In this document: positions 3,949 through 64,000 of the stretch, in pieces
How the letters are laid out: every line of letters starts with the position of its first letter
Position numbering within the stretch: position 1 is the first letter of the stretch
DNA from: an uncultured Actinomycetota bacterium
GTDB lineage: Bacteria > Actinomycetota > Actinomycetes > Propionibacteriales > Nocardioidaceae
Assembly: GCA_963824105.1 (NCBI GenBank)
Contig: CAWGNN010000009.1
Location: forward strand, 500,279 to 564,278
Length of the DNA stretch: 64,000 nucleotides
Reading direction: 5' to 3'
Program-made: the position numbers and the translations under genes
The notes under the pieces: generated by a model
Database searches by the model: none
The model's input: only the letters and a program-made list of their open reading frames with translations
What the model was told of the DNA's origin: nothing

Positions 3949-5166
3949 CTACGAGCCCGCCTTGCGACTCCGCAGCGGAGGAACGACGAGGTCGGGAATC
4001 GCCCGGAGGATGAACTTGTCGAAGTGTGGAACTGTGAACGCTGCGTAGCCGTGCACCGAGGTGTAGAGCAGGCCCATGTTGATCAGCTCAGCGCGGGTCG
4101 GTGCCAGGTTCTGGGACGTTCGCCCCATCACGTCGGCGACGTCGGAGGCTTTCTGCGGCTCGGGGCCAAGCTGAGCCATGGCGCGCAGGTATGCCCGCTG
4201 CAGTCCAGTTGCACGGTCGAGGCGCACACGGAAGAACGATTCATCCAACTTCGCTTCGTAGCTCGGCACGGCGGCCAGAATGTCGTCGCGCCCGATCACG
4301 GGGCCATCGGCAACGGTCCATACGGCGTAGCCAAGCTCCTGGAGGAAGTACGGGTAGCCGCCGGTAACAGCCACGGCTTCATCAAGGGCGTCGGCGGTAT
4401 ACCGCACAGCTTCTTCCTCGGCTGGACGAACGAGCGCCGCCTTTGCGTCGTCGGGCGAAAGGACATCGATCGCGGGGAACCTGAAGAGCCGCTCGGCATA
4501 TGACTTGGCATCGCCCGCCAACTCAGCGATCTGTGGGAGCCCGGCGCCCACCAAGATGATCGGCAGCTTCCGCTGCACCATCTTGTGCATCGCTTCGATG
4601 AGCGCTTCGAGCTGAGGCTTGCTCAGGAACTGGATCTCGTCGAACAGCAGGACCACCCCACGTCCCCGCTCCGAGGCGGCCTCGCCGATTGCGAGGAACA
4701 CGTCCGTCAGGTCCAGCGCCAAGACTGCGTGGTCGGCGAACCCTTCCGCCGCCTCCACGTCGAGCCCTGCGGTCCAAGTCCCGCTTGAGTCGACGCTGAC
4801 GGTGAAGGACTTCAACACCGAAGCGGCGTGCCTGAACCGGTCGCTCCACCGCGCTCTGGGAGAGAGCTCGAGCAGGGCCGTTCGCAGCCGGCTCGCGATG
4901 TCCCGGCGGAACTCCGACTCGTCGTTCTTGCTGACCTCGACTTCAACGACCACCCATTCGCGCGCCAGTGACTTGGTGCGGAACTGGCCGAGGAGCACGG
5001 TCTTCCCGACTCCGCGCAGCCCCGTGAGGATCATCGACTGTTCGGTGCGGCCCGCCGCGATCCGGGCGAGCAACAGATCGAAAGACGCCAGTTGGTCGTC
5101 GCGACCGACAACAGCCTGTGGCTCGGCTCCTGCATTGGGCGTGTATGGGTTGGTCAGGGCCCGCAT
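3949..5166 (-). CDS. Orc1/Cdc6-like AAA ATPase (ATP-binding protein) with C-terminal winged-helix
   Basis: Walker A GLRGVGKT, Walker B VVLLFDEIQ, C-terminal wHTH-like segment (ASDVADVMGRTSQNLAPTRAELINMGLL). Confidence 0.65.
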   Translation of the reverse strand: MRALTNPYTPNAGAEPQAVVGRDDQLASFDLLLARIAAGRTEQSMILTGLRGVGKTVLLGQFRTKSLAREWVVVEVEVSKNDESEFRRDIASRLRTALLELSPRARWSDRFRHAASVLKSFTVSVDSSGTWTAGLDVEAAEGFADHAVLALDLTDVFLAIGEAASERGRGVVLLFDEIQFLSKPQLEALIEAMHKMVQRKLPIILVGAGLPQIAELAGDAKSYAERLFRFPAIDVLSPDDAKAALVRPAEEEAVRYTADALDEAVAVTGGYPYFLQELGYAVWTVADGPVIGRDDILAAVPSYEAKLDESFFRVRLDRATGLQRAYLRAMAQLGPEPQKASDVADVMGRTSQNLAPTRAELINMGLLYTSVHGYAAFTVPHFDKFILRAIPDLVVPPLRSRKAGS

Positions 5167-5174
5167 GAACCCAT

Positions 5175-5231
5175 GTTATCCATGTTAGGTTACTTTATCT
5201 GTGTCTCATAAAGTGATCTAACATGGATAAC
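5175..5231. repeat. AT-rich extended inverted repeat / hairpin (24-nt arms, 9-nt loop) 8 bp upstream of the ATPase start
   Basis: GTTATCCATGTTAGgttACTTTAT-ctgtgtctc-ATAAAGTgatCTAACATGGATAAC. The outer 14-mers are perfectly complementary. Strikingly low GC for this genome. Confidence 0.8.
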
Positions 5232-5313: not shown

Positions 5314-5375
5314 GGGGAAGGGGACTCCGGTATTGGCGTGGCAGCGGTTGCCGTGCGGGCTCTTCGAGAGGAACT
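5314..5375 (-). repeat. msrA 3'-end fragment A (displaced msrA terminus)
   Basis: Reverse strand reads QFLSKSPHGNRCHANTGVPFPRVT*, matching the resident MsrA end [22 protein letters not shown] (9361-9430). Confidence 0.8.
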
Positions 5376-5413
5376 GACAGTGTCTGCGCGGGCACGTAGT
5401 CGGTTGTGCCTGA

Positions 5414-5686
5414 TCAGGCAGGGCTGAGCCAGGCCCGGAGTGCCTCGCGGATCACTTCGCTCGCATTCGAGTGATCCGCCTCCGCCCGGGCGCGGAGCGC
5501 GTCCTCCAGCTCTGGATCGAGGCGAACAGGAATGACGCGCGCGGCCGCTGACCCGATCGGCTTGCGCCCCCCTTTGCGCTTCGATGCCTGGACGTCGTAA
5601 CCAGCTTCCGCCTCACGGGAGAGTTCCTCGACCACCGCCTCGGCGAGGGGCTTGCCCTTGGCCGTTCGTGTGCTGTTCTTGGTCAT
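5414..5686 (-). CDS. ribbon-helix-helix (CopG/BrnA-like) antitoxin
   Basis: C-terminal RHH signature VIPVRLDPELEDALRARAEADHSNASEVIREALRAWL. Lies 11 bp downstream of a small toxin-like ORF. Confidence 0.65.
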   Translation of the reverse strand: MTKNSTRTAKGKPLAEAVVEELSREAEAGYDVQASKRKGGRKPIGSAAARVIPVRLDPELEDALRARAEADHSNASEVIREALRAWLSPA

Positions 5687-5696
5687 TGGTTCCTCC

Positions 5697-5948
5697 TCAT
5701 GGCAGGAGGTCGAAGTACTGAGGTCGGCACTTCATCGCGTGGATGACCATCTCGGTGTCGTCGTCGAGGAGCAGAACAACGATCTCCAGAAGTCGTCCAG
5801 TGGTGTCGAAGCCGAGCCGGAGCTCTCGCGGGGGCTTGTCGTCCTCGATTTCGTAGGCGATCAGGTAGCCGGATGCTCCCTGCTGGATGTCTTCATCGCT
5901 GGTCCCGTGTTTCGGGCCGAGCGGTGGATCTCCACGCATGACTCGCAA
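5697..5948 (-). CDS. BrnT-like small toxin (TA module with 5414-5686)
   Basis: GRLLEIVVLLLDDDTEMVIHAMKCRPQY resembles the BrnT C-terminal GRLLvVV...IISARkA..ErkqY pattern. Toxin-first gene order as in brnTA. The track start is TTG; an ATG lies at 5939. Confidence 0.45.
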   Translation of the reverse strand: MRVMRGDPPLGPKHGTSDEDIQQGASGYLIAYEIEDDKPPRELRLGFDTTGRLLEIVVLLLDDDTEMVIHAMKCRPQYFDLLP

Positions 5949-5990
5949 TACGAAAGAGACGCTCGGTCGACCCTCGGCCTACTCGCTGGC

Positions 5991-6040
5991 GGGGAAGGGG
6001 ACTCCGGTGTTGGCGTGGCAGCGGTAGCCCGTAGGGGTTC
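5991..6040 (-). repeat. msrA 3'-end fragment B
   Basis: Reverse strand reads ...[58 protein letters not shown] matches the resident msrA end. Confidence 0.8.
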
Positions 6041-6059
6041 TTGGCCGGGTGCGCGTCCG

Positions 6060-6623
6060 TCAGGCTGACGGCGTCTCGCGCTCGGTCACGGCCAACGCGC
6101 CGAGCCAGAAGCCCATCGTCAGGTCGGCTCCCCGGTTGAGAATCCCGCCGTTCATCGGCTCTCCGAATGCGAGTGGCAGGAACAGGAGCCAGGCCACCAC
6201 GGCGAGAACGCCGAGCCAGCCCCGCCGGGTCCTCCAGGAGATCCAGGCTATGGCCGGTAAGAACGCCAGCGGGGCGCCTTGAAGGTACGGGAAGACCTGG
6301 TCGGCGAGTCCCCCCGTGTCGGTCGGGGGCAGGAGCCCGATGGCGAACGCCCCCGTGGCGAACAGTGCGAGCAGCACTGCGGCCGCACGGTACCTGGCCG
6401 TCAAGAAGGCTGCCGACCAAGCCGCGATCGCCACTCCGACGTACCCGAGCCGCATCACCAGCCCCCAAGCCCCGAGCGCGTAGGTCTCAGGGTGCGCGGT
6501 CAGCACGTCCAGGTCGGGACGCAGAAGGGGGCCGACCAACAGCGCGGCGGACCACACGGCGGCGCCGGCCAGAGACAACCGGACTGCCAGGCTCCGGGAC
6601 CCCGGGGGTCTGCGGCCTGTCAC
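6060..6623 (-). CDS. integral membrane protein, DUF998-like
   Basis: 187 aa with about 6 hydrophobic helices. The family assignment is from general resemblance only. Confidence 0.4.
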   Translation of the reverse strand: MTGRRPPGSRSLAVRLSLAGAAVWSAALLVGPLLRPDLDVLTAHPETYALGAWGLVMRLGYVGVAIAAWSAAFLTARYRAAAVLLALFATGAFAIGLLPPTDTGGLADQVFPYLQGAPLAFLPAIAWISWRTRRGWLGVLAVVAWLLFLPLAFGEPMNGGILNRGADLTMGFWLGALAVTERETPSA

Positions 6624-6757
6624 TCGCCGATCGTGTCACACCGTCGACGGGGTCGACGTCGATCGTTCCGACGAGCCCCATCACAGCATCCCGGCGAGAT
6701 GGTGCGGCGCCGTGATGCGGCGCAGGCCGGTGTCGACCACCGTCACTCTGTGGTGCT

Positions 6758-6824
6758 GGGGAAGGGGACACCGGTGTTGGCGTGGCAGCGGTAGCCGTTC
6801 GGGATCTTTGCGAGGTACTGCTGA
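6758..6824 (-). repeat. msrA 3'-end fragment C (longest, ~67 bp)
   Basis: Reverse strand reads QQYLAKIPNGYRCHANTGVPFPSTTE*. Colinear with 9361-9427 of resident msrA. Confidence 0.85.
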
Positions 6825-6860
6825 CCGCATCTGTGCGAACACGTAGGTGGATGTGCCTGA

Positions 6861-6919
6861 TCAGGCAGGGATGAGTCAGGACCGGGGCGTCTCGCAGCTC
6901 ACTTCGCCCGCATTCGAAG
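6861..6919 (-). pseudogene. remnant of the 3' end of an RHH antitoxin gene (copy of 5414-5471)
   Basis: GTGCCTGATCAGGCAGGGaTGAGtCAGGaCCGGgG..CTCGCaG.TCACTTCGCcCGCATTCGA is colinear with the 3' end of the antitoxin at 5406-5471. No start codon and no N-terminal part. Confidence 0.6.
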
Positions 6920-7019
6920 GTCTGCTTTCCCCGGCCATCGGAAGGCCGCCACCGCCAGAGCTTGATCTGATCCGCTGCCCCCGGTTACCCTCGGCAGGCC
7001 TTGTCGGGAGGGGGACGAC

Positions 7020-9248
7020 ATGCGGGTGTTGAGGGCGGCGGTCGGACTGCTGCTGGTCTCCACCTTCGTGCTGCTGGGCGTCGAGCACGGGCCCCCTGCG
7101 ATCACCTCCCCTGTTGGCATCGCGCTGACGAGCACGACGGACAGCAGTGTGTCGATCCTGGTGCTGGGCGATTCATACTCCTCGGGCAACGGAGCCGGGA
7201 GCTACGACACCTCAGGTTGCTTCCGTTCTGCACACAACTATGCCGAGAGGTTCGCCACGATCCTGGCCAATCGCTTCGGTCAGGCCGCCACCGTGACCGA
7301 CCAGGCCTGCAGTGGCGCGACCTCGAACGATTTCGCCCAGGCCCAAAACGCCCAGACCGGACCTCAACTCGACTCGGTCGATGCGACCTACGACGAGATC
7401 TTCCTGACCATCGAGGGCGACGATCTCGGGTTCCCCGACATCGTGCGGGACTGCCTCGTCACGGTAACGGCCCTCCGCTCGACCTGCCGTTCTGATCTGA
7501 ATGTGACCGATCATTACATCGCCGTCGGAAACGCGCGAACGGACATTCGCTTGGTGCTTTCGCAGATCCACGGCAGGGCGGCGCCGACAGCCCAGATCGT
7601 TCTCCTGGGATACCCCTACCTCGAGGGTGATCCCAACCTCAAGTTCGGGCGGATCCCGCTCGGAAAGCGAATCCGGGATCTCGGGGACGAGCTGGAGGCC
7701 ATCCAGACGAACACCGTCAACCGCCTGAACAAGCACTTCGGCGCCCATCAGTTCGTCTTCGTCTCGACCCAGAGACTCTTTGCCGGGAAGTCGTCCTGGC
7801 TTCCCCCGAAGCGGCAGAGGAACCACGAGCTCTTCAAGGCCCGCGAGAACGCCCACCGTTGGTTGCTGCAATCGCCGTGGGACGTGGCGCAAACGGCTGA
7901 GTACTACCATCCCAGTCCTCGGGGCTGGCACGAGGAGGCCGAGCTCCTGGCTCACTCGAAGATGGTGCTGCGCCGCAAGCTGGCCTACGGCGGCGGCGAC
8001 CGCTCCTTCTCGGCGACGGTCACCGAGCCGTTCTCGGCGTCCATCGGTCAGATCGCCGGTGGGGTCAGACCCTTCAGCGTCGCCTTCGACCAGAGCGCTC
8101 CGGTCCCGCCGTGGCTCAGCGTCTCGTGGAAGAAAGGGCGGCTCCGTCTGGGGGGTACGCCCGACCGGGCGGGGACCTGGGCGTCGGTCATCGACGTAAG
8201 CGACCAGACGGGCCGGACCGTCGCTGTCAACGCCACCATCACTTCGACGTTCCCGGTCGGAAAGACGCTCTGCACGACCCAGACGGTTGTTCCGAGGATC
8301 GAGTGCCGCGCTCTCGTAGCGATGTACAAGTCCACCAACGGACCCTCCTGGGTCGACAACACAAACTGGGACGCGAGCATCCGGATCTGCTCGTGGAAGG
8401 GCATCTGGTGCAACCACGGCCGGCACGTGCGTCAGATCCAGTTGGGGAACAACGACTTGAGTGGCCCGCTCCCCGCTCAGCTGGGGAACCTGACCGGGAT
8501 GAAGTGGCTCCGCCTAGGAGGCAACCAGCTGACAATTGTGCCCAGCCAGATCGGCAACCTCGCCAATCTGGAGTGGCTGCAGCTCGACGGCAACGACATT
8601 GCTACCCTGCCCTCGTCGCTGTGGACGCTGGCCAAGCTGAACGTCCTCTATCTCGGGTCGAATCCGCTGGGCAGCGTCGATCCGGGGGTCGGCAACCTCA
8701 AGAACCTCACCTTCCTGAGCCTCGACAGCGACCAGCTCTCCAGCCTTCCGCGACAGCTCGGGAATCTCCCGAATCTCTTTGAACTCGATGTCGAGGACAA
8801 CCAGTTGACGGGGCTGCCACGGAACCTCCGTCACCTCCCGCTGTACCAGCTCGACGCCTCCTACAACCAGTTCGCCCAGATCCCGTCCTGGGTTACGACG
8901 GAATCTCTCCTCGACGACCTGGACTTCACCCATAACCAGCTGATCAGCGTCCCCACATCCATCGGCAACCTCACCCGGCTCACGCGACTCGGCCTCGCGT
9001 GGAACCAGCTGACCGCCGTCCCGGCCGAGGTGGGAAGCCTGCCGAACCTCCAGACGCTCGACGTGAGCGGCAACCTCTTGACCGGAGACATCTCCCCTTG
9101 GGCGAAGCCGCTCTCGTCGGACGTCAACCTGCAGTCCTTGACGATTCGAGACGGGGCAGGCTTCAACAACTGCCTGACCGTGGGCGGCCACACCGCTCTC
9201 GCGGCGTGGCTGACATCGATGGATGCGCTCTGGAACGAGTGCTCGTGA
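7020..9248 (+). CDS. secreted SGNH/GDSL hydrolase - Ig-like - leucine-rich-repeat (LRR) fusion protein
   Basis: N-terminal signal-like helix. GDSYSSG block I and ACSGAT block of SGNH esterases. GTPDRAGTW Ig-like segment. C-terminal cap CSWKGIWC followed by about 10 LxxLxLxxNxLxxxP repeats. Confidence 0.8.
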   Translation: MRVLRAAVGLLLVSTFVLLGVEHGPPAITSPVGIALTSTTDSSVSILVLGDSYSSGNGAGSYDTSGCFRSAHNYAERFATILANRFGQAATVTDQACSGATSNDFAQAQNAQTGPQLDSVDATYDEIFLTIEGDDLGFPDIVRDCLVTVTALRSTCRSDLNVTDHYIAVGNARTDIRLVLSQIHGRAAPTAQIVLLGYPYLEGDPNLKFGRIPLGKRIRDLGDELEAIQTNTVNRLNKHFGAHQFVFVSTQRLFAGKSSWLPPKRQRNHELFKARENAHRWLLQSPWDVAQTAEYYHPSPRGWHEEAELLAHSKMVLRRKLAYGGGDRSFSATVTEPFSASIGQIAGGVRPFSVAFDQSAPVPPWLSVSWKKGRLRLGGTPDRAGTWASVIDVSDQTGRTVAVNATITSTFPVGKTLCTTQTVVPRIECRALVAMYKSTNGPSWVDNTNWDASIRICSWKGIWCNHGRHVRQIQLGNNDLSGPLPAQLGNLTGMKWLRLGGNQLTIVPSQIGNLANLEWLQLDGNDIATLPSSLWTLAKLNVLYLGSNPLGSVDPGVGNLKNLTFLSLDSDQLSSLPRQLGNLPNLFELDVEDNQLTGLPRNLRHLPLYQLDASYNQFAQIPSWVTTESLLDDLDFTHNQLISVPTSIGNLTRLTRLGLAWNQLTAVPAEVGSLPNLQTLDVSGNLLTGDISPWAKPLSSDVNLQSLTIRDGAGFNNCLTVGGHTALAAWLTSMDALWNECS

Positions 9249-9297
9249 GCGACGACGGTGGGTTGGTAGAGACGGACTGACGCCGGGGGCAGGCCAC

Positions 9298-9999
9298 TCA
9301 CCCGGTTGGGCGGCTCCGGTTCGTTGAACTCGCCTGGCGCAGATCCTGCAATGCCTGCGCGGGGAAGGGGACACCGGTGTTGCTGTGACAGCGGTAGCCA
9401 TTAGGACGGATTGCCAGGTACTGCTGGTGATGGTCCTCGGCGTAGTAGTAGGTCGGGGCGGGCTTGATCTCGGTGGTGATCGACTCGGTGATGCCCCGGC
9501 GCTGCAGCTCGGCCTGGTATCGCGCCCGCAGCTCGGCTGCGGTCTCCGCCTGCTCCGGGGTGGTCGTGTAGATCGCGGAGCGGTACTGGGTGCCGACGTC
9601 GTTGCCCTGCCGCATGCCCTGGGTGGGGTCGTGGATCTCGAAGAACCGTTTCACCAGGTCGGCGAAGGAGACCCGGGCCGGGTCGAAGACGACGCGGACC
9701 GCCTCGGTGTGACCAGTGCGGCCCGTGCACACCTCCTCGTACAGCGGGTTCGGCGTGACTCCGCCGGCATACCCGGCCGAGGTGGACCAGACGCCGGGGA
9801 TCTGCCAGTAGATCTCCTCGGCTCCCCAGAAGCAGCCGAGCCCGAAGATCGCGACCTCCAGGCCGTCGGGAACCTCGTCGGTGACGACGGGTGCGTCGAG
9901 GACGCGGTGACGCGCGGCGATGGAGAACGGCCGCTCCGGACGTCCGGGCAGTGCCTCGCCGGCTGCGGGGAGCGCCTGCTTGTGGCGGGTGAAGAGCAT
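9298..9999 (-). CDS. msrA: peptide-methionine (S)-S-oxide reductase
   Basis: GLGCFWGAE active-site motif plus full-length MsrA similarity. Unusual 20-aa tail after the conserved ...NTGVPFP. Confidence 0.93.
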
Positions 10000-44158: not shown

Positions 44159-44230
44159 GGGACCATCATGGACCTTTCGGCCATGTCGTCAACCGCCAGC
44201 GGACAGATAGTTCGGGCCGGGGCGGACTCC

Positions 44231-55120: not shown

Positions 55121-56197
55121 GTGGCACTCACGATCGGCATCGTCGGACTCCCCAATGCGGGCAAGTCGACCCTCTTCAACGCGCTGACGAAGAACAACGT
55201 CCTCGCGGCCAACTACCCCTTCGCGACCATCGAGCCCAACGTGGGGGTCGTGGCGCTGCCCGACCCCCGACTGGACAAGCTCGCCGGGATCTTCGGATCC
55301 GAGCGGATCATCCCTGCCACCGTGCAGTTCGTCGACATCGCCGGCATCGTCAAGGGGGCGTCGGAGGGCGAGGGGTTGGGCAACAAGTTCCTCTCCCACA
55401 TCCGCGAGTCGGACGCGATCTGTCAGGTCACCCGGGTCTTCCGCGACGAGGACGTCTCTCACGTCGAGGGCGAGGTGAACCCGGCCAGCGACATCACCAC
55501 CATCCAGACCGAGCTGATCCTCGCCGACCTGCAGACGCTGGAGAAGGCGATCCCTCGGCTGGAGAAGGAAGCCAAGGGTAGGAAGGAGATGGTCCCGGCG
55601 CTCGAGTCCGCCCAGGCAGCCAAGGACGCGCTGGAGGCGGGCACGCCGATCATCTCCACGACCATCGACCGCGCGCAGATCCGCGAACTGATGCTGCTGA
55701 CCGCAAAGCCCTACCTCTACGTCTTCAACTGCGACGCCGACGAGCTGGGCGACGATGAGCTCAAGTCGAGGATGCGCGAGCTGGTCGCTCCTGCCGAGGC
55801 GATCTTCCTCGACGCGAAGTTCGAGGCGGAGCTCGTCGAGCTCGACGACGAGAACGAGGCGCGGGAGATGCTCCACGAGCTCGGTGTCGAGGAGCCCGGC
55901 CTCGACGTGCTCGCCAGGGTCGGCTTCGACACCCTCGGCCTACAGACCTATCTCACCGCCGGCCCCAAAGAGTCCCGAGCGTGGCAGATCCACAAGGGCG
56001 ACACCGCACCCGAGGCAGCCGGCGTCATTCACACCGACTTCCAGAAGGGTTTCATCAAGGCCGAGATCGTCTCCTACAACGACCTGGTCTCAGCGGGTTC
56101 GATGGCGGCGGCGCGGGCGGCGGGCAAGGTGCGCATGGAGGGCAAGGACTACGTGATGGCCGACGGAGACATCGTAGAGTTCAGGTTCAACGTGTAG
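55121..56197 (+). CDS. ychF: redox-regulated ATPase YchF
   Basis: [31 protein letters not shown] domain, C-terminal [13 protein letters not shown] start preferred over the track TTG at 55112. Confidence 0.95.
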
Positions 56198-56629
56198 CGG
56201 TCAGTCCCGACCTGCTCCTCATCCACGAGGGGATCGGACTGCACGGTCACCTCGTCGGCGAGGGTGAGTTCGACCGACCCACCGAGGTATTCCTGCCAGA
56301 CATCGTTTACGACGTCTCGGCTCTGGGGGGACAGACTCTCCTCGGGTGCGACGCGGTCGCGGCTGCAATGCGGGCGCTCCGTGACCGAAATCCTGTCGCT
56401 CACCACGTGTCCAACATCGTCGTTGAGCAGTTCGATGGAGGCCGGGCGAGAGTACGGTCGAGGGGATTGGCCGCCATGGCCGACGGCTCGGCGGGTTCCG
56501 TCGTCTATCTCACGAGCTCGTTCGGTCAGGCGGTGACGGTTGGCGAATTTCTCGGCGCACAGTGCTGCCTCGTAGACAGCCGCTGACTCCGTCTGCCTGA
56601 CCGTGGACTCATCTTCGTAACCTGATGGG

Positions 56630-56683
56630 GTCGAGTTTCGTCACCGAGCAACGACTTCTGGGAAGAAGTAGCTGTTCTTCAGA
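56630..56683 (+). repeat. ychF-end-derived cassette boundary repeat R1
   Basis: GTCGAGTTTCGTCACCGAGCAACGACTTCTGGGAAGAAGTAGCTGTTCTTCAGA. In frame it reads VEFRHRATTSGKK*. Confidence 0.85.
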
Positions 56684-56689
56684 CATCCG

Positions 56690-57574
56690 ATGGAGGAAGT
56701 CATGGACGAGAGCCGGTTCGCGGTCGAAGGGGTCCAGGTCGGTCACTGGACGGACGACACCGGCCTGACCGGATGCACCGTGGTCGAGCTCCCCGTAGGG
56801 ACGACTGCTTCGTATGAGGCGCGCGGGGGAGCCCCTGCATCGCGAGAGCTGCTGCTCTTGGAGCCCGACAAGACGGTGCAGTCGGTCGACGCGGTCCTGC
56901 TCACTGGCGGGTCTGCTTTCGGTCTCGCCGCGGCCGACGGGGTGATGGAGCACTACCGGCTCCAGGGACGCGGCGTCCCCACCCCAGGCGGCCCCGTCCC
57001 GATCGTTCCCACCCTCGCGCTCTTCGATCTCGCGGTGGGTAACCCGTTGGCCCACCCAGACGCCGATGCCGGACGAGCGGCAGCCCAGTCCGTGCGAGCG
57101 CGGCAGGTCTTGCGGGGTCGAGTGGGAGCCGGGACGGGTGCGCAGGTGAGCCATTGGCGCGGCCCCGAGGGCCGACGGCCCGGAGGTCTGGCGTATGCCG
57201 AGCACCGCCTCGGCGACCTCGCGGTCGCCGTCTTGTGTGTCGTCAACGCCTTTGGTGACGTCGACGACGGCTCGTCTTCTGTGGTCTTCGATGCAGTTGC
57301 CGCCCTGGAGTCACCATTCGCCTTCGACCAGGGTCGAAGCCACACCACGATCGGGGTGGTCGTCACCAATGCGCGCCTGGACAAGGTGGGGTGCCGGATC
57401 GTCGCCCAAGGGGCTCACGACGGCCTCGCGCGCGCGTTGACGCCGCCTCACACCCGCTTCGACGGCGACGCCTTCGTGGCTGCCGCCACCGGCCAGGTCG
57501 ACGCCCCGGTCGACGCGGTGCGCCTGCTCGCTCTGGCCTGCGTCACCGACGCAGTGCGGTCGGTCGCCTCCTGA
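56690..57574 (+). CDS. P1/S58 family peptidase (DmpA-like L-aminopeptidase/D-esterase)
   Basis: TDDTGLTGCTVV, LLTGGSAFGL, VGAGTGA. Alternative start ATG 56702 behind GGAGGA. Confidence 0.8.
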   Translation: MEEVMDESRFAVEGVQVGHWTDDTGLTGCTVVELPVGTTASYEARGGAPASRELLLLEPDKTVQSVDAVLLTGGSAFGLAAADGVMEHYRLQGRGVPTPGGPVPIVPTLALFDLAVGNPLAHPDADAGRAAAQSVRARQVLRGRVGAGTGAQVSHWRGPEGRRPGGLAYAEHRLGDLAVAVLCVVNAFGDVDDGSSSVVFDAVAALESPFAFDQGRSHTTIGVVVTNARLDKVGCRIVAQGAHDGLARALTPPHTRFDGDAFVAAATGQVDAPVDAVRLLALACVTDAVRSVAS

Positions 57575-57713
57575 CATCCGGGTCCCCGCACGTCTGGACG
57601 CCGATCATCGCCGCACGCCCGGTCCTGTTGACCGCCTCGTTCGAGCAGTGGACGTGGATGGTGAGGAGCGCCAGCCACGTCGACGCATCCCACTGAGCGG
57701 GCGGAGGGGTCTC

Positions 57714-57768
57714 GTCGAGTTCGGTCACGGTGTGGCAACTTCCGGGGAAGAAGTAGCTCGGCTCTGAA
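57714..57768 (+). repeat. cassette boundary repeat R2
   Basis: GTCGAGTTCGGTCACGGTGTGGCAACTTCCGGGGAAGAAGTAGCTCGGCTCTGAA. Confidence 0.8.
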
Positions 57769-57793
57769 CGGGAACCGGAGTTTCAGTGGCGAT

Positions 57794-58528
57794 TCAGCTG
57801 CCGTGCAGCGCTACCGCGTCGAGCATCGCCCCGGCCGCGTCATCGTGCCGGCCCAGCGCGACGTTCAGGACGGTCGTGGCCGTCCAGGCGGGGTCGTCCC
57901 ACCGCTCGGGCGGGTTCTCCCGCCAGACCGACATCGAGTCGGTGAGCTCGGTCCGCACGAGCCCCGGCAGTACGTCGAGCGCCACCACGCCCGTGCCGGC
58001 CAGCGAGCCCGCCAGTGTTTGGGTGAGCAGGGTCGCTGCCCGCTTGCCTACCGCATAGCCGGTGTATGTGCCCGACAGTGCTGCTGCCCGCGCCTCGCTC
58101 GCGATGGTGACCACCCGACCGCGGCCGCGCGCCACCATGTCGCCGAGCACGATCGCGTCCAACAGCAGGGGCCCGCGCAGGCACGTCTCGACCACCGACC
58201 AGGTGACCGCGGGGTCTACTTCCCACAGCGGCACTGCCTCGGGCTCGATCGCCGCAGCCGAGTGCACCAGGAGGTCGGTTGGCCCGTACTCCGAGCGCAC
58301 CCTTGACAGTGCCGCGGCGGTCTCCTCCAGGCTGGTGATGTCGCAGGGAACGGCGAATGCCAGCGGGCCGAGCGCGCTCGCGGCTTCGTCCAGCACGTCG
58401 GCCCTTCGGCCGAGGAGTGCGACGCGCATTCCGGCCTCAACCAAGGAGCGGGCCACTGCCAGGCCGATGCCGGTGCCGCCGCCGGTGACCAGACCGACCT
58501 GGTCGGCCAGGGGAGTGCTGTCGTCCAT
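57794..58528 (-). CDS. SDR family oxidoreductase
   Basis: VTGGGTGIGLA cofactor motif, YAVGKRA (YxxxK). Start at MDDSTP. Confidence 0.85.
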   Translation of the reverse strand: MDDSTPLADQVGLVTGGGTGIGLAVARSLVEAGMRVALLGRRADVLDEAASALGPLAFAVPCDITSLEETAAALSRVRSEYGPTDLLVHSAAAIEPEAVPLWEVDPAVTWSVVETCLRGPLLLDAIVLGDMVARGRGRVVTIASEARAAALSGTYTGYAVGKRAATLLTQTLAGSLAGTGVVALDVLPGLVRTELTDSMSVWRENPPERWDDPAWTATTVLNVALGRHDDAAGAMLDAVALHGS

Positions 58529-58635
58529 GGTCCCGAGCCTAGGGCGCGTCCTTGGAGCCACGCTCACGAGCACATGGTGATTGCAGCTGACCGCTGGATG
58601 GATGAGCTCGCGTCGCTGAGCGGAGACCAGGCGTG

Positions 58636-58691
58636 GTCGAGTTCCGGCACGGAGCAACATCGTCTGGGAAGAAGTAGCTGTGCCTCCTGCA
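58636..58691 (+). repeat. cassette boundary repeat R3
   Basis: GTCGAGTTCCGGCACGGAGCAACATCGTCTGGGAAGAAGTAGCTGTGCCTCCTGCA. In frame it reads VEFRHGATSSGKK*. Confidence 0.85.
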
Positions 58692-58753
58692 TCGGCTCAC
58701 TTCGCGAAGCGTGCGCGTCCGAAGCGCGAGCACGCTGTCCGGGGCCCCGCAGG

Positions 58754-59647
58754 TCACGGCGCACAGGCCCCGGAACCGAGTTTGGCGAGCCCGGTGAGGT
58801 CGCCGGCACCGTAGTTGGTCTGTCCGCGCGACTCCGGGAACATGATCTGGGAAGGATCCTGAACATGACCGAGACCAAGGACATGCCCTAGTTCGTGCAT
58901 GACCACCGCTTGCTCGGCCTGCGTGTGATGTTGCGCGCTTTCCTGGTCGAACCAACTGCTCAGAAGAGCGATCTGTCCGGTGACATAGTGCGGTTGGTTG
59001 GCGCCGTTCACCACGAGAAGCTCGCTGCCGCCGAGCCCGACCGTATCGGCGTTGGCACTTGCGCTGTCCAGGGTCGTGGGGAAGCTGATGAGCACCGGCT
59101 TTGGGACAACCGCATTCTTGCGTTCGGCCCAGGTGTCTGCTGTGAGTCCGTCGTAGACGAATTCAAGGCCGCTCGCGGCTTGGGTCTTCTTCACCGCGGG
59201 CTGGATGAAGGAGAGAAAGTCTGGTGGGGCTCCGCCGGGGTTGATGACGTAGTGAATGGGCTTGCACGGGTCGTAGGTCACCGGGTCGCCTGCTGAGTCC
59301 GTGTTCTCAATCGAGTAGTTCAACGACGACACCGTCGGCGTGACGACGGGAAGAAGACGATTCGGCCGTCCGATGATGCCGATCGCCTCGGCAAGAGGCT
59401 TGATCGGACCGGGGTTCACAAGTACCAAGGCAACAACAACGCCCCCGAGTCCGACCGCAGTGGCCGTGGCGATGCCCAGTCGGCGAAGACGGCCCCGCCG
59501 GTTCCGATACCGGAGGGCGGCTCGCTCTGCCGTGGCCGCGCGAGCAGCGGACTCAGCTGTCTGGCGCGTGACCCCGGTCCAGCGGGTGCCGTCGTGCCAC
59601 CGCTCCCCATCCCCCTGAGGGTCGGGATGCCAACCCCGCTCAGTCAC
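58754..59647 (-). CDS. membrane-anchored metzincin (matrixin-like Zn protease) with N-terminal DUF2510 motif
   Basis: GWHPDPQGDGERWHDGTRWT (DUF2510), one TM helix, HELGHVLGLGH zinc motif. GTG start at 59647. Confidence 0.75.
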   Translation of the reverse strand: MTERGWHPDPQGDGERWHDGTRWTGVTRQTAESAARAATAERAALRYRNRRGRLRRLGIATATAVGLGGVVVALVLVNPGPIKPLAEAIGIIGRPNRLLPVVTPTVSSLNYSIENTDSAGDPVTYDPCKPIHYVINPGGAPPDFLSFIQPAVKKTQAASGLEFVYDGLTADTWAERKNAVVPKPVLISFPTTLDSASANADTVGLGGSELLVVNGANQPHYVTGQIALLSSWFDQESAQHHTQAEQAVVMHELGHVLGLGHVQDPSQIMFPESRGQTNYGAGDLTGLAKLGSGACAP

Positions 59648-59742
59648 ACGTAGCCCTCCTGTCCACCCGTGTCCACGTGATCCGGTCGCAAGGGTAGACC
59701 TCCGCCTGAGCCCGGACCTCTGAGTGGACGCGAGGGAAGCCG

Positions 59743-59798
59743 ATCGAGTTCCGTCACGGAGCAACAACGTCTGGGAAGAAGTAACTGGGCTCTGAGCA
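59743..59798 (+). repeat. cassette boundary repeat R4
   Basis: ATCGAGTTCCGTCACGGAGCAACAACGTCTGGGAAGAAGTAACTGGGCTCTGAGCA. In frame it reads IEFRHGATTSGKK*. Confidence 0.85.
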
Positions 59799-59838
59799 TC
59801 CGCTCGAGCCGATGTGAATGAAGTCGTAGGCTCACCGG

Positions 59839-60261
59839 GTGAGCGATGTTCTGGACACGGGGCCGTTCTTCCACGGGACCAAAGCGGACCTGAGGGTGGG
59901 CGAACTTCTGGCGGCGGGCTTCCGATCGAACTATCGACCCGAAGTGTCGATGAACCACATCTACTTCACAGCTTTGCTGGACGGTGCTGGGCTTGCTGCG
60001 GAGCTCGCCGTGGAGCTCGCCGGCGGCGACGGGATCCCACGCGTCTACCTCGTTGAGCCGACCGGAGCGTTCGAGAACGACCCCAACGTGACCGACAAGA
60101 AGTTCCCCGGGAACCCAACCCGGTCCTACCGCAGCCGAGAACCGCTCAGGATCATCGACGAGGTGACTGACTGGAAGCGCCTCACCCCTGACGAGCTCCA
60201 AGCATGGCGTGAGCGACTGGCGGTTCTCCTGGGGGAAGAAGGCGGAGAGATCATCAACTGA
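59839..60261 (+). CDS. arr: rifampin ADP-ribosyltransferase
   Basis: GPFFHGTKADL, GFRSNY, HIYFTALLD, VYLVEPTGAFENDPNVTDKKFPGNPTRSYRSREPLRII is near-colinear with Arr-2/Arr-ms as I remember them. Confidence 0.88.
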   Translation: MSDVLDTGPFFHGTKADLRVGELLAAGFRSNYRPEVSMNHIYFTALLDGAGLAAELAVELAGGDGIPRVYLVEPTGAFENDPNVTDKKFPGNPTRSYRSREPLRIIDEVTDWKRLTPDELQAWRERLAVLLGEEGGEIIN

Positions 60262-60298
60262 CCCACCGTCCAGTCATGCCTGCGGGCACGTGAACGTG

Positions 60299-60340
60299 GT
60301 CGAGTTCCGCTTCGACGTCTCGACCTGGGGAGGGCGCAGA
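60299..60340 (+). repeat. cassette boundary repeat R5 (ychF-terminus type)
   Basis: GTCGAGTTCCGCTTCGACGTCTCGACCTGGGGAGGGCGCAGA begins with VEFRFDV and is followed by CATCGG as in R1/R3/R4. Confidence 0.75.
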
Positions 60341-60384
60341 CATCGGAGTGTGACGCGTGATGCGCATCGCGCTACACTCGGCTA

Positions 60385-60663
60385 GTGATCAGGTCGTTCA
60401 AACACAAGGGCTTGCGGGACTTGTTCACGAAGGGCAAGGCGACGGGTGTTCAACCGGCACATGCGCGGCGCCTCAGGATGCAGTTGGCGGCGCTTCACAC
60501 GGCCAGCAGTATCGATGACATGGACATTCCCGGATACCGCTTACATCCGCTCAAGGGTGCGGGCCGGGGGCGTTGGTCGATCACGGTCAATGGCAACTGG
60601 AGGGTGACCTTCGAGTTCCGCGACGGGGACGCCTACGTTCTAGATTACGAGGACTATCACTGA
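60385..60663 (+). CDS. higB: HigB-type (RelE/ParE superfamily) toxin
   Basis: IRSFKHKGLRDLF...HPLKG...WSITVNGNWRVTFEF...V.LDYEDYH is canonical for the HigB killer protein. Confidence 0.88.
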   Translation: MIRSFKHKGLRDLFTKGKATGVQPAHARRLRMQLAALHTASSIDDMDIPGYRLHPLKGAGRGRWSITVNGNWRVTFEFRDGDAYVLDYEDYH

Positions 60664-60968
60664 TGACGACCACGATGCAGATGTACGACCCGCCGCATCC
60701 GGGCGAGTTCATCACGGAGACGTATCTGACTCCCTTTGGTATCAGCGGGCGGTTGTTGGCTACCCACCTCGGGGTCTCGGCGTCGACGCTGGCGCGTGTG
60801 CTCAACGGGTCCAGTCGTGTCACCCCAGAGATGGCCCTCCGATTGGGCCGGGTGATTGGACGCTCGCCCGAGAGCTGGCTAGCCATGCAGGACGCCTATG
60901 ACCTCTGGGAGGCGCGTCCGAAGGTCGACGTCTCGACGCTCGCTCCGGTCAAGTTCGCCGTCTCCTAG
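60663..60968 (+). CDS. higA: HigA antitoxin (XRE-family HTH)
   Basis: PPHPGEFITETYL...LATHLGVSASTLARVLNG...TPEMALRL. 1-nt overlap with the higB stop. Confidence 0.88.
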   Translation: MTTTMQMYDPPHPGEFITETYLTPFGISGRLLATHLGVSASTLARVLNGSSRVTPEMALRLGRVIGRSPESWLAMQDAYDLWEARPKVDVSTLAPVKFAVS

Positions 60969-61016
60969 GTGTCCCGACGGCGTGGCGAAGGAGAGACAGT
61001 TACGGCGCTGAAGCGG

Positions 61017-61060
61017 GTGGAGTTCCGCTTCAACGCGTGGGTCTTCTGCTGGGACGTCCG
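61017..61060 (+). repeat. cassette boundary repeat R6 (ychF-terminus type)
   Basis: GTGGAGTTCCGCTTCAACGCGTGGGTCTTCTGCTGGGACGTCCG begins with VEFRFNA, versus resident VEFRFNV*. Confidence 0.75.
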
Positions 61061-61104
61061 GTCGCCTAGCCTCACTGGGTCAGATCCACAGAAAGGCCGG
61101 TCCG

Positions 61105-61446
61105 ATGAGCGATGAACAGGTGCCGGAGACCAGAGGTGTCGAGGCAGAGTTGTTGGCCGCGATTGACCTCGGCCCCGAGATCGAGGGTATGGACGGCTTC
61201 CAGCTTCGGATGCGGAGGTTCACGTTCGCGCCGGGCGCGGTATTCGGCCCTCTCCACGACCACGCCGGCAGACCGGGAACGGTCTTTGTGCTGCAGGGGA
61301 CGATCACCGACCATCGGGACGGGATCGCCACGGACTACGGTCCGGGCCTGGGCTGGCCCGAGGACCGGAACACCGTCCATTGGCTCGAGAACCGTGGGTC
61401 GGTTTCTGCGGTGGAGATCTCGGTCGACGTCCTCGGGCAGCAGTAA
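61105..61446 (+). CDS. cupin domain protein
   Basis: 113 aa, GPLHDH...G...H.LEN cupin motifs. Confidence 0.7.
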   Translation: MSDEQVPETRGVEAELLAAIDLGPEIEGMDGFQLRMRRFTFAPGAVFGPLHDHAGRPGTVFVLQGTITDHRDGIATDYGPGLGWPEDRNTVHWLENRGSVSAVEISVDVLGQQ

Positions 61447-61505
61447 GCGCTGCCCGAGAACCTCCCGTTTCCTGGTGTGACGCTCCTTCACAACACCATT
61501 CGGCG

Positions 61506-61552
61506 GAGGTCCGCCTCAACGCTTTGTGTCGGCGCCCAAGAAGTAGGTCAGG
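61506..61552 (+). repeat. degenerate cassette boundary repeat R6b
   Basis: GAGGTCCGCCTCAACGCTTTGTGTCGGCGCCCAAGAAGTAGGTCAGG keeps the (T)CCGC(T)TCAACGC and AAGAAGTAG blocks. Confidence 0.5.
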
Positions 61553-61561
61553 GCCGGCGGC

Positions 61562-61876
61562 TTAGCCGGCCACGCGCTGCTTGAGGGCATGGAGCAGGTC
61601 CTGAAGCGCTGGGACGTTCCGCAGACCATCTGGGGTCTGATACACCCGGCATGCCAGCGAGCCCTGGGTCCCAGTGGTTTGGAAGAGATCGGCTCCGTCG
61701 ACGACGAACGCCGGCGATCCCCCGAACCCCCGGGCCCGTGCCGCGTCCTCGGTTTCGATGACCCCCACGGTGAAGGTCGCGTCCGTGAGCCCGACGTCGT
61801 CCAGCGCGACGCGGAGCAGCTCCGAGGCATCCTCGGCGCCGGGGCACCCCGGGATCACCAGTAGTTGAATGTCCAC
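61562..61876 (-). CDS. thioredoxin/glutaredoxin-fold small protein (monothiol CPGA motif)
   Basis: IQLLVIPGCPGAE...FGGSPAFVVDG pattern of the thioredoxin-like family. GTG start. Confidence 0.6.
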   Translation of the reverse strand: MDIQLLVIPGCPGAEDASELLRVALDDVGLTDATFTVGVIETEDAARARGFGGSPAFVVDGADLFQTTGTQGSLACRVYQTPDGLRNVPALQDLLHALKQRVAG

Positions 61877-61942
61877 GCTGCCATCGTGACCCGCGAGTCA
61901 ATGTCTTGAGGTCGGGCGGGTATAGGGAACCGGTGGCGACGA

Positions 61943-61995
61943 ATTCGAGTTCGGTCCGGGCACCGACTTCGGGGAAGACGTAGCCTCTCGCCTGA
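61943..61995 (+). repeat. cassette boundary repeat R7
   Basis: ATTCGAGTTCGGTCCGGGCACCGACTTCGGGGAAGACGTAGCCTCTCGCCTGA. Confidence 0.7.
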
Positions 61996-62040
61996 CAGCA
62001 CCACGCTCGATTGAGAGCGTGGACCGTCCAAGGGGAGTGC

Positions 62041-62553
62041 GTGAGTCAGCAGCAGATCGTCGTCATGGGCGTCTCGGGCAGTGGCAAGTCGACGACTGGC
62101 GAGAGGCTTGCGCGGGCTCTGGGATGGTCGTTCGCCGAGGGGGACGACTTCCACCCCGAGGAGAACGTGCGCAAGATGGCAGAGGGCCGTGCCTTGACCG
62201 ACGAGGATCGATGGCCCTGGTTGTTGGCAATCCGTGCCTGGATGACGAGGGAAGATCTTGCTGGCCGCGACAGCGTTGTCTCCTGCTCGGCGTTGAGACG
62301 TGCCTACCGAGACGTGTTGCGGCAGGGGCCGAGTCGTGTGACGTTCGCCTATCTCGAAGTTTCCGAGGAGGCTCTCAGAGCTCGTCTCGCTGGGCGCACC
62401 GGGCACTTCATGCCGGAATCGTTGCTCGACTCTCAGCTGAACACTCTCGAAGTCCCCGGGGAGGACGAGGGTGCCGTGGTCGTGAACGGAAACCAGACAC
62501 CAGCGGAGATCGTCGCGGACATCCTGTCCGCGTTGCACCAGCAAGAAGCCTGA
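62041..62553 (+). CDS. gntK: gluconokinase (GntK/IdnK family)
   Basis: VVMGVSGSGKST P-loop, FAEGDDFHPEENVRKM, LTDEDRWPWL, SCSALRRAYRD. Confidence 0.88.
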   Translation: MSQQQIVVMGVSGSGKSTTGERLARALGWSFAEGDDFHPEENVRKMAEGRALTDEDRWPWLLAIRAWMTREDLAGRDSVVSCSALRRAYRDVLRQGPSRVTFAYLEVSEEALRARLAGRTGHFMPESLLDSQLNTLEVPGEDEGAVVVNGNQTPAEIVADILSALHQQEA

Positions 62554-62784
62554 CTCCGGAAGCGACTCACGCCGGGCTGACCCCCCGCCCATGGCGAGTT
62601 CGACTCGGGCGTGGATCGCGCCGCCACCCGGGCACGAAAGCAGCCAGCTCTCCCTACGTGCTCAAGCATCGCGGCGTGGGGCACCTTGCCCGAGTCGAGA
62701 GTTGTATGCGTTTGTGTACGCCCGTCGCGGTTTCGGCTCCTCACTGAGCGTGGGCGCACGCTACCGTTCCGACATACTGACGTG

Positions 62785-63117
62785 ATGGCGCTTCCCGAGA
62801 CCGATCTCCACCGCATCCACGTCTGGGCTCGTGAGCGCGTCCCCGAGCACCTGTGGGATCAAGTCAAGGTCGAGGCTGATGTCTCCGACCGCTACGTCGA
62901 CATCGTCGAGGTGCGCCCCCCGTGGGACGGCGTCGGCCAGCACACTCGGTTCCCGATCGCACGGCTGCGCTACACGAAGTCGACCGGACTGTGGGCGATC
63001 TACTGGCGCGATCGCCACCTCAAGTTCCACGAGTACAAGCGCAAGCGCCCGACCAAGAACGTCCAGGCTCTCCTGGACCACATCGAGACCAGCGGCGATC
63101 CGATCTTCTGGGGGTAG
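62785..63117 (+). CDS. DUF3024 domain protein
   Basis: VDIVEVRPPWDG...FPIARLRYTKSTGLWAIYWRDRHLKFHEY is typical of DUF3024. Confidence 0.65.
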   Translation: MALPETDLHRIHVWARERVPEHLWDQVKVEADVSDRYVDIVEVRPPWDGVGQHTRFPIARLRYTKSTGLWAIYWRDRHLKFHEYKRKRPTKNVQALLDHIETSGDPIFWG

Positions 63118-63129
63118 TGAGCGGATTCC

Positions 63130-63140
63130 TTGACGGTCAA
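63130..63140. promoter_or_regulatory. 11-bp palindrome TTGACGGTCAA in an AT-rich stretch upstream of the wHTH-NTase gene
   Basis: Read directly. Followed by TATAAT and GGAGGA. Candidate autoregulatory operator. Confidence 0.35.
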
Positions 63141-63165
63141 TATAATGGAGGATAATCTCAGTTAT

Positions 63166-63750
63166 ATGAGAACCGAGGCACCGCTTCTCGCTCCGATCTT
63201 CCGGTCGGACGGTCAGGCGCGCCTGCTCTCCACTTTGTTGCTGACCGGCGACGAACTGAGCGTCACCGATCTGGCCAAACGGGCCGACCTGGCTTATCCG
63301 ACCGCGCACCGCGAGGTGGCGCGCCTGGTGGACGCCGGCATCCTCAGCGAGCGACAGGTGGGCCGCACAAGGTTGATCCGCGCCAACCGCGAGAGCCCGC
63401 TCGTGGACCCCTTGCGCGAGATCCTCACGGTCGCGACCGGCCCGGTCGTGCTCCTGGCCGAGGAGCTTGCCAGCCTCGACGGGATCGAGTCGGCGTTCCT
63501 CTACGGCTCCTTCGCCGCGCGGATGCTCGGGGATGCCGGTCCGGCGCCGCACGACATCGACGTCATGGTGCTCGGTGAGCCCGACGTGGACGCGATCTAC
63601 GAGGCGTGCGCCCGGATCGAGGCGGCCGTGCACCGTCCAGTGAACCCGACGATCCTCACTCCTGAGGAGTTCGCCGCGCCCTCCGCCTTCCTGGACAACG
63701 TGCGCAGCGGCCCGGCGGTCGCTGTGATCGGGGAGCTGCCGTGGCTCTGA
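63166..63750 (+). CDS. winged-helix (ArsR/MarR-like) + minimal nucleotidyltransferase (MNT-type antitoxin-like) protein
   Basis: LSVTDLAKRADLAYPTAHREVARLVDAGIL wHTH. LYGSFAAR...HDIDVMVLG matches the GS..D.D NTase motif. Confidence 0.65.
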   Translation: MRTEAPLLAPIFRSDGQARLLSTLLLTGDELSVTDLAKRADLAYPTAHREVARLVDAGILSERQVGRTRLIRANRESPLVDPLREILTVATGPVVLLAEELASLDGIESAFLYGSFAARMLGDAGPAPHDIDVMVLGEPDVDAIYEACARIEAAVHRPVNPTILTPEEFAAPSAFLDNVRSGPAVAVIGELPWL

Positions 63751-64000
63751 CTCCGCTCACCCGCGTCCAGCAGGCGACGGTCCTCGCGTTGGTAGAGGCG
63801 CGACGTCTCGATGTCGCGCCCGCGGACATCTCGCGTGCGACCTCGTTCCTGCGCCAGGCCGAGGAACGCCTGAACCAGTTGCCGCTGCTCACCAGTGTCG
63901 CCATCAGGTACGGCATTGCCTACGACGCCTGTCACGACACGGGGGAGGCGCTGCTGGCGGCGTACGGCTTCCGGACGACCAACGGGCCCGGCCAGCACGA
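63741..64000 (+). CDS. HEPN-like partner protein (N-terminal part; runs off the window)
   Basis: Not in the ORF track. GTG 63741 overlaps the upstream stop by 10 nt. Open frame VALTPLTRVQQATVLALVEARRLD...IAYDACHDTGEALLAAYGFRTTNGPGQH. The helical pattern resembles HEPN toxins paired with MNTs. Confidence 0.45.
   Translation, partial: MALTPLTRVQQATVLALVEARRLDVAPADISRATSFLRQAEERLNQLPLLTSVAIRYGIAYDACHDTGEALLAAYGFRTTNGPGQH

Follow-up and report, generated by a model that had tools for sequence, protein, structure and literature searches.

Site-specific accretion at gene ends is textbook knowledge for tRNA genes and for a few protein genes, where the incoming units are normally large elements that bear an integrase. 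At icd of Escherichia coli, for example, the att sites of phage 21 and of e14 hold an alternative 3' end of the gene; integration replaces the icd end and leaves the old end behind as a downstream pseudo-fragment, the newcomer being in each case one large prophage or element that brings its own integrase, with no array of cassettes. Here we analyse a 64-kb window (the whole stretch of DNA under study, 68% G+C) from an uncultured soil member of the Nocardioidaceae, in which two housekeeping protein genes, msrA and ychF, are each followed by a compact array of cassettes without an integrase. One of the msrA cassettes was caught segregating in a natural population, and the same hotspot is found across the family. 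We propose, with a probability of roughly 0.55, that small cassettes accrete at msrA by site-specific recombination with a recombinase that is encoded elsewhere, in a layout that resembles both cis-mobilizable elements (CIMEs) and integrons.

[quoted passage not shown] That system shares with the window the 3' end of a housekeeping protein gene as the target, the gene itself being kept intact, and att repeats that include the gene end; its CIMEs have no integration genes and keep attL and attR, and newcomers enter the att site at the gene end, which leads to tandem arrays. It differs in that the related ICE and its integrase are present or known and that the units are several kb of decayed ICE, whereas the window has cassettes of one or two genes, up to ~10 in a row at ychF, and a repeat made of 50-66 bp of diverged coding sequence. 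The repeats at fda are short (~27 bp). With the CIMEs the window has in common that the repeats include the 3' end of the target, that the target is intact, that the breakpoints lie at the repeats and that the units carry no genes for integration or transfer.

In the tycheposon islands of Prochlorococcus, arriving elements displace older ones outward, partial target-gene copies lie scattered over the island and the cargo consists of niche genes (bioRxiv 10.1101/2020.12.28.424599). These features are likenesses to our locus. The tycheposons differ from it in their targets, which are seven RNA genes (six for tRNA and one for tmRNA), and in encoding a tyrosine or serine recombinase of their own, often together with replication genes; the window contains no tRNA or tmRNA gene, which rules out a tRNA-linked island, and its cassettes hold neither recombinase nor replication genes. 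The tandem islands linked to ssrA in Dehalococcoides enter site-specifically at the end of a conserved gene that is present in a single copy, and the mechanism is shared throughout the genus (PMC3146451). Entry at a conserved gene end is again a shared feature, and the tmRNA gene as the target is, in that account, the difference. The ssrA islands of Dehalococcoides carry their own serine recombinase.

Cassette arrays of the integron type may stand without a neighbouring integrase (CALIN, attC clusters that lack an integron-integrase), and complete integrons were not found in Actinobacteria (PMC4889954). The likeness lies in compact single-gene cassettes separated by a recombination-site repeat and in a cargo of toxin-antitoxin and resistance type (the Arr-type gene of the ychF array). 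Unlike an integron, the window shows mixed gene orientation, a repeat that is a fragment of a housekeeping gene and an insertion point inside a coding sequence; it has compact tandem cassettes, mostly of a single gene, but no intI with attI was found in the parts of the window that were scanned, and attC hairpins are absent. Single-stranded DNA folds of eight junctions gave z values between -0.82 and +0.85, and Rfam had no match in the window. Since there is no significant single-strand structure, the junctions are not attC-like, and attC sites are ruled out. Xer-dependent modules (integrative mobile elements exploiting Xer, IMEX, and plasmid dif modules, pdif) are units bounded by 28-bp dif-like XerC/XerD sites; the G+C-rich core of the msrA repeat, judged by eye only, is presumably unlike such sites. 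Islands at fda, icd, tRNA genes and ssrA have established the principle of gene-end accretion; what is unusual here is the choice of targets, the compactness of the cassettes and the lack of a linked integrase.

Displaced copies of the msrA end

The MsrA proteins closest to that of the window share 79-80% identity with it and come from Marmoricola and Nocardioides metagenome-assembled genomes (MAGs); all relatives of this msrA belong to the Nocardioidaceae. A degenerate pattern of 35 nt finds the 3' end of the gene four times in the 64 kb, at 5314, 5991, 6758 and 9361, in one orientation and with start-to-start spacings of 677, 767 and 2603 bp. The same pattern has no match in 100 dinucleotide shuffles, and a more sensitive search of the 64 kb with DNA and peptide queries found no fifth copy. 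The copy at 9361 belongs to the resident gene, and the others, called fragments C, B and A in outward order, are displaced ends (Table 1). Fragment A translates as QFLSKSPHGNRCHANTGVPFPRVT and fragment C as QQYLAKIPNGYRCHANTGVPFPSTTE, each followed by a stop codon. The newest cassette supplies the last 22 conserved codons of msrA together with a tail of 20 aa.

Decay of the displaced copies grows outward, from the intact fragment C to B with its frameshift and on to A, which lacks a codon and the conserved Tyr (Y->N). This order agrees with the order of events that we propose below. In fragment B a 1-nt insertion has put the upstream 'AKNPY' into another frame, and only the part from TGYRCH onward is in frame; a reading as 'NPYGYRCH' is therefore a merger of two frames.

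A sequence-only reading of the window had proposed three in-frame msrA ends, each with its own stop codon, and had supposed that with every event a fresh gene end comes in and the previous one moves outward, by a mechanism general to the lineage. The three displaced copies hold up statistically, and only the reading of fragment B has to be corrected. The fragments are also closer to one another than to the resident copy, as had been claimed, with 36-38 of the 39 positions of a core shared among A, B and C and 33-36 shared with the resident end. They occur only beside msrA and at no unrelated locus, and related strains and species do show variation and empty sites where an invariant block would have spoken against the proposal. 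The supply of a new end is shown by an allele that lacks 2603 bp and ends msrA with the sequence of fragment C, and the generality is backed by the msrA-end arrays of related species and the array behind ychF, all described below.

It is hardly credible that the copies result from local duplication or gene conversion of msrA's own end, without gene flow, or from an assembly artefact. They are direct repeats near the parent gene, as such an origin would leave them, but they differ from one another at both synonymous and non-synonymous sites, in the manner of different alleles. The same structure is found in independent ENA, NCBI, JGI and Logan assemblies, the cargo differs between sister species, and the G+C content of the cassettes is mostly ~64% against 68% for the window.

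Presence and absence of cassette 3

The same species was recovered from several public assemblies (ENA, NCBI, JGI, Logan) by exact-protein look-up. ENA contig_20005 (L081) has the arrangement of the window, and the same 233-aa msrA gene is called on it. Compared with L081, the NCBI MAG contig CAYVUN010000005.1 (L082) shows 99.6% identity over 5.8 kb of the flank with msrA and 99.75% over 12.9 kb of the opposite flank, and lacks exactly 2603 bp, bounded by the 66-bp repeat. In this empty allele msrA encodes 217 aa, against 233 aa in the occupied one, and its functional end is 100% identical to fragment C. The conserved GYRCH.NTGVPFP motif is retained in both alleles.

In a three-way alignment, the empty site equals the msrA-side junction (attL) up to CAGCAGTACCT and equals fragment C (attR) from this 11-mer onward. 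Because the empty site switches there from attL to attR identity, the exchange took place within the 11 bp of CAGCAGTACCT, at the 5' edge of the 66-bp repeat and outside its longest identical block (21 bp). Ahead of the 11-mer, 123 nt are free of differences; behind it, the resident end and fragment C differ at 11 of 55 positions. On the other side the first single-nucleotide polymorphism (SNP) is 1.6 kb away, and the SNP positions show no co-converted tract. Cassette 3 is gained or lost at this point, and the end of msrA is replaced with it; either an insertion or an excision could have given rise to the two alleles. As a unit without an integrase is gained or lost exactly at the repeats, the units behave as cis-mobilizable cassettes.

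Cassette 3 is present in the window, in L081 and in L094, while the short contigs L083, L088, L097 and L098, from four other samples, have the empty allele or break off where it branches; L083 begins at the 11-mer. In ERR11523667 the cassette is a 2652-bp unitig (L094), whose overlap with the shared sequence is exactly 30 nt (k-1) to either side of the 11-mer. Such an exact k-1 bubble unitig around the 11-mer means that both alleles coexist in ERR11523667. In a further short contig, ERZ23500199 scaffold_4277 (L089, positions 1-140), 15 additional nt of exact msrA sequence stand before fragment C, and before these stands part of an RND/MMPL-type transporter gene, on the opposite strand; either the contig is chimeric or it shows another cassette, whose boundary is different.

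The position of the exchange bears on whether a dedicated recombinase is needed at all. RecA-dependent homologous recombination or slippage between the 40-66-bp msrA-end repeats, with Campbell-type integration of circles released by repeat-repeat excision and with exchange between strains, would account for the lack of a linked recombinase; the repeats do share an identical block of 21 bp and a 39-nt core of 85-97% identity, and the boundaries of homology vary among the junctions. We nevertheless regard this route as improbable. The resolved event exchanged at the extreme edge of the homology and not in the 21-bp block, and divergence switches abruptly at the exchange point. In unrelated cassettes of different species the msrA homology begins at the same nucleotide, which homologous recombination does not predict, and it cannot produce the first copy of a cassette with a foreign msrA end.

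Recurrence in related Nocardioidaceae

The region around msrA was compared in 80 species-level loci. The upstream neighbour is a gene for cystathionine gamma-synthase (metB-like) in 75 of the 80, and the downstream genes of the window are found in none. Displaced msrA ends are present in at least 8 species, always downstream of msrA and in the same orientation (two each in L007 and L043, and others in L018, L049, L054, L006, L063 and L029), so the anatomy seen in the window recurs across the family. Their cargo is different every time and includes a membrane protein, a 4HBT thioesterase, a GH16 enzyme, an SDR, a LuxR-type regulator, a SnoaL-like protein, a DUF1254/1214 protein and a decarboxylase; it differs even between sister species.

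A YCII-like gene appears to be the ancestral downstream neighbour of msrA. It lies 24-110 bp after msrA in 11 species, which represent empty sites, and 0.5-7.3 kb after it in 17. The first two open reading frames (ORFs) downstream of msrA, 128 in ~70 species, matched 94 different Pfam families, and integrases are not among the families matched by at least two of these ORFs.

In most well-preserved junctions the msrA homology starts at CAGCAGTACCT or at most 3 nt from it, and the sequence upstream is unrelated. This boundary is shared by fragments A and C of the window, fragment 1 of L007, and the junctions of L018, L054, L006 and L043.

DUF222 proteins were met at two kinds of position, namely ~11 kb beyond msrA in the window's own species (L081, 16973-18268) and among the first two ORFs downstream of msrA in 3 related loci scanned. 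The family is usually linked to an HNH nuclease domain.

A larger array behind ychF

The window contains a second zone of this kind, and the two are the only ones in it. The ychF gene itself occupies 55121-56197 and is followed by its array at 56198-64000 (11077-19270 in L099). Most of the units measure ~0.4-1.1 kb. In order from the gene they comprise an 84-aa ORF, an S58 peptidase, an SDR, an M10 peptidase, an Arr-type rifampin ADP-ribosyltransferase, a HigB/HigA pair, a cupin, a 104-aa ORF, a kinase, and a DUF3024 protein with a nucleotidyltransferase and its partner.

The repeat is here a fragment of the ychF end, GTCGAGTTCCG, which can be recognized clearly at eight junctions and in a more degenerate form at another two. 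At four junctions it is followed by a conserved stretch of ~45 nt that reads ...VEFRHGATTSGKK and a stop codon, a non-canonical YchF end. No cassette-level polymorphism was found at ychF, all contigs recovered having one and the same order. A core motif common to both zones was looked for; CAGCAGTACCT and GTCGAGTTCCG have only AGT.CC in common, which is too short to carry weight.

Search for a recombinase and for donors

No recombinase was found in the window, which was covered by Pfam searches of the msrA zone and of positions 20-40 kb and by precomputed gene tables elsewhere, except for the stretch from ~40.6 to 45 kb. The ORFs of the cassettes contain no recombinase, relaxase or transfer domain in Pfam or NCBIfam, and no replication genes. 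Pattern scans of viral contigs with the msrA end, the ychF junction and the cassette arm, and BLAST searches against phages and plasmids, found no attP of a phage or plasmid. In the literature that was searched, no paper links msrA or ychF to an attB site or an integrase in Actinobacteria.

One relative, N. szechwanensis (L049), has a tyrosine recombinase relic inside its msrA-flanked island, ~0.56 kb from msrA (11206-11556). In this ORF the N-terminus of one recombinase is joined, through an internal deletion, to the Cys-rich C-terminal tail of an adjacent one; its homologues are tyrosine recombinases with PF00589. Intact relatives form rows of two or three recombinase genes (L138, L157), in the manner of Tn554 or of recombinase-in-trio units. 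The 80 metagenome loci that carry a recombinase of this type are multi-recombinase, transposon-like units without an msrA or ychF end, and the relic is unsupported as an integrase of msrA. A cognate recombinase, expected for a CIME, was found neither in the window nor beside msrA in the 80 relatives, the L049 relic being unlinked to msrA elsewhere.

Homologues of the ribbon-helix-helix (RHH) gene of cassette 1 are widespread but come without the msrA-type arm; they adjoin phage-type integrases in L104 and L105. A homologous pair of small ORF and RHH gene stands in a tRNA-linked island with partial-tRNA repeats (L101, L102). In L101 (8476-8834) and L102, from ERZ25039541 and ERZ25039469, the pair adjoins a tRNA gene and two partial-tRNA repeats (GACCTACGCA...), and the two loci diverge just inside the tRNA gene. 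Another genome of the same sample series thus has an accretion zone of the classical kind, at a tRNA site.

These observations bear on a classical form of accretion, in which the cassettes would be trimmed relics of integrase-bearing elements (prophages, actinomycete integrative and conjugative elements or integrative and mobilizable elements) specific for the msrA 3' end, and the polymorphism within the species would stem from a subsequent excision, deletion or exchange of alleles. CIME arrays have been described as arising by this route (PMC5704250), and remnants pushed outward are also seen in the Prochlorococcus islands (bioRxiv 10.1101/2020.12.28.424599). The relic in the L049 island, the RHH homologues beside phage-type integrases and the pair in the tRNA-linked island fit it as well, and the RHH remnant of cassette 3 is a scar of past remodelling. 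We consider trimmed relics rather unlikely all the same, in view of three msrA and ~10 ychF cassettes that are almost fully coding one- or two-gene units free of integrase debris, of the Pfam survey downstream of msrA in ~70 species and of the relatives of the L049 relic, which never stand beside msrA or ychF ends in the 80 metagenome loci. The identity of fragment C with the functional end of the empty allele would, moreover, have left little time for trimming.

Proposed mechanism

According to the site-specific accretion that we favour, the last 66 bp of msrA would serve as the chromosomal attachment site, into which small circular cassettes would enter by conservative recombination. Each cassette would have an attachment site of its own with, on one side, a 3' end like that of msrA. 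The exchange would occur in or at CAGCAGTACCT, ~22 codons before the conserved end of the protein, and the cassette's copy would therefore become the new functional msrA end, while the former end would be pushed outward as a dead fragment. For cassette 3, the junction of the circle is expected to read GATGCGGT-CAGCAGTACCT-GGCAATCC. The array of the window would have arisen in three successive events that brought in, oldest first, the small-ORF/RHH pair, the membrane protein and the SGNH-LRR gene. Having no recombinase, the cassettes would be moved in trans by one encoded elsewhere in the genome or on a helper element, and the same process would operate at ychF.

Several points weigh against site-specific accretion. 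The exchange point is fixed by one polymorphic event only, and the polymorphism within the species could have spread by ordinary homologous exchange of the whole region, in which case an integrase may have been lost from the cassette beforehand. Counted from the CAGCAGTACCT boundary, the msrA homology begins in other junctions at +12 (fragment B, L049 and L063), at -9 (fragment 2 of L007), at -15 (L089) or at +45 (a short fragment in L006), and boundaries that vary in this way imply either several types of site or decay. In the collections the sites occur in no phage, provirus or plasmid, and no free circular junction was seen. The circular intermediate and the trans-acting enzyme are inferred, and so, since no recombinase was identified, is the conservative chemistry. 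The L049 island, finally, does hold the relic of two adjacent tyrosine recombinase genes.

A wider proposal, which we put forward tentatively and as a possibility only, is that the Nocardioidaceae have an undescribed system of gene-cassette capture, analogous to integrons and mechanistically distinct from them, with an unlinked recombinase that would insert and excise self-contained cassettes of one or two genes at conserved stretches within the last codons of msrA, ychF and probably other housekeeping genes. The recombination site of each cassette would then double as a spare gene end, and arrays of up to ~10 cassettes without an integrase would be built up. If a dedicated trans-acting recombinase is at work, this would amount to integron-like gene capture in Actinobacteria, the group in which complete integrons were not found (PMC4889954), and it would explain part of the fine-scale turnover of accessory genes in soil Nocardioidaceae, among them toxin-antitoxin pairs, the Arr-type rifampin-modifying enzyme, peptidases and surface proteins.

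The cassettes and other features of the window

The coordinates of the features are given in Table 1.

Table 1. Features of the msrA and ychF zones in the 64-kb window.
Feature	Position	Strand	Basis or remark
AAA_16/ATPase_2 gene (3949-5166) with upstream AT-rich inverted repeat	3949..5231	-	just beyond fragment A
Fragment A, outermost displaced msrA end with stop codon	5302..5375	-	presumed oldest
Cassette 1, small ORF (5697-5948, putative toxin) and RHH antitoxin-like gene (5414-5686)	5376..5978	-	
Fragment B, decayed displaced msrA end with stop codon	5979..6045	-	upstream homology degenerate or shortened
Cassette 2, membrane protein gene of 172/187 aa (6060-6578/6623)	6046..6742	-	weakly DUF998-like
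Fragment C, intact displaced msrA end with stop codon	6743..6823	-	11-mer at 6813-6823
Cassette-3 arm adjoining fragment C	6821..6917	-	81% identical to 5374-5470
Cassette 3, SGNH/GDSL-Ig-LRR gene (7020-9248, + strand), new msrA end with tail, 3' remnant of an RHH gene, palindrome	6824..9415		
msrA, target gene, 233 aa	9298..9999	-	PMSR domain, E 2.7e-60
Resident msrA end, attL-like junction, 66-nt repeat unit	9361..9426	-	pattern search, alignment, translation
11-bp segment CAGCAGTACCT (msrA sense), holds the msrA-side recombination point	9416..9426	-	three-way alignment; bubble-unitig ends 30 nt around the segment
ychF, then larger array of ~10 one- or two-gene cassettes	55121..64000	+	extends ~1.2 kb past the window end

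Cassette 3 measures 2603 bp when one copy of the 11-mer is counted. Its gene encodes a protein with SGNH/GDSL, He_PIG and leucine-rich repeat (LRR) domains in Pfam and NCBIfam, for which 5.8 billion clustered proteins hold no homologue above 46% identity or covering more than about half its length. The LRR part resembles repeats of the Xanthomonas type III effectors XopAC, XopAE and XopL, at the level of the repeat only. Despite their different cargo, cassettes 1 and 3 have a junction-adjoining arm of 97 nt in common, which holds the 3' end of an RHH gene and a perfect 14-nt palindrome. In cassette 1 the palindrome (5407-5420) overlaps the stop codon of the RHH gene; in cassette 3 it is TGCCTGATCAGGCA (6854-6867) and the RHH part is a decayed, dead remnant. 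On one reading, this suggests a cis-acting site that was kept while the cargo was replaced.

The gene products proposed in the sequence-only reading fared differently. The SGNH-Ig-LRR gene stands as described, the RHH gene of cassette 1 is antitoxin-like and belongs to RHH_1, and the AT-rich hairpin announced beyond fragment A corresponds to the inverted repeat at 5175-5231. The small ORF of cassette 1, called BrnT-like, has no family above threshold in Pfam or NCBIfam, DUF4258 being a sub-threshold match (E 0.04), and that name is not supported. For the DUF998-like membrane protein of cassette 2, the match spans the full length at an E value of 0.008, which is below the cutoff. The 'Orc1-like' ATPase is indeed an ATPase, of AAA_16/ATPase_2 type, with a match to Orc1/Cdc6 at the P-loop level only; its gene is not a conserved neighbour of msrA in the 80 relatives. 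The adjoining inverted repeat has 24-nt arms that are 92% complementary and a local G+C content of 55% in a 68% genome, and may be an operator or the end of an element.

For annotation, integration has left its footprints in MsrA's tail of 20 aa and in the small pseudo-ORFs that resemble msrA or ychF; these are not sequencing errors.

Between the metB-like gene and msrA, a toxin-antitoxin pair of an RHH (Rv0623-like) and a Fic/Doc gene lies at 10123-10697. A Fic homologue is found at that position in only 7 of the 80 related species, so the 5' side of msrA is variable as well. Away from both arrays, two adjacent stretches of 300 nt and 62 nt at 43345-44873 recur ~948 bp apart with 71-77% identity; they look like tandem paralogous genes that are unrelated to the cassette arrays.

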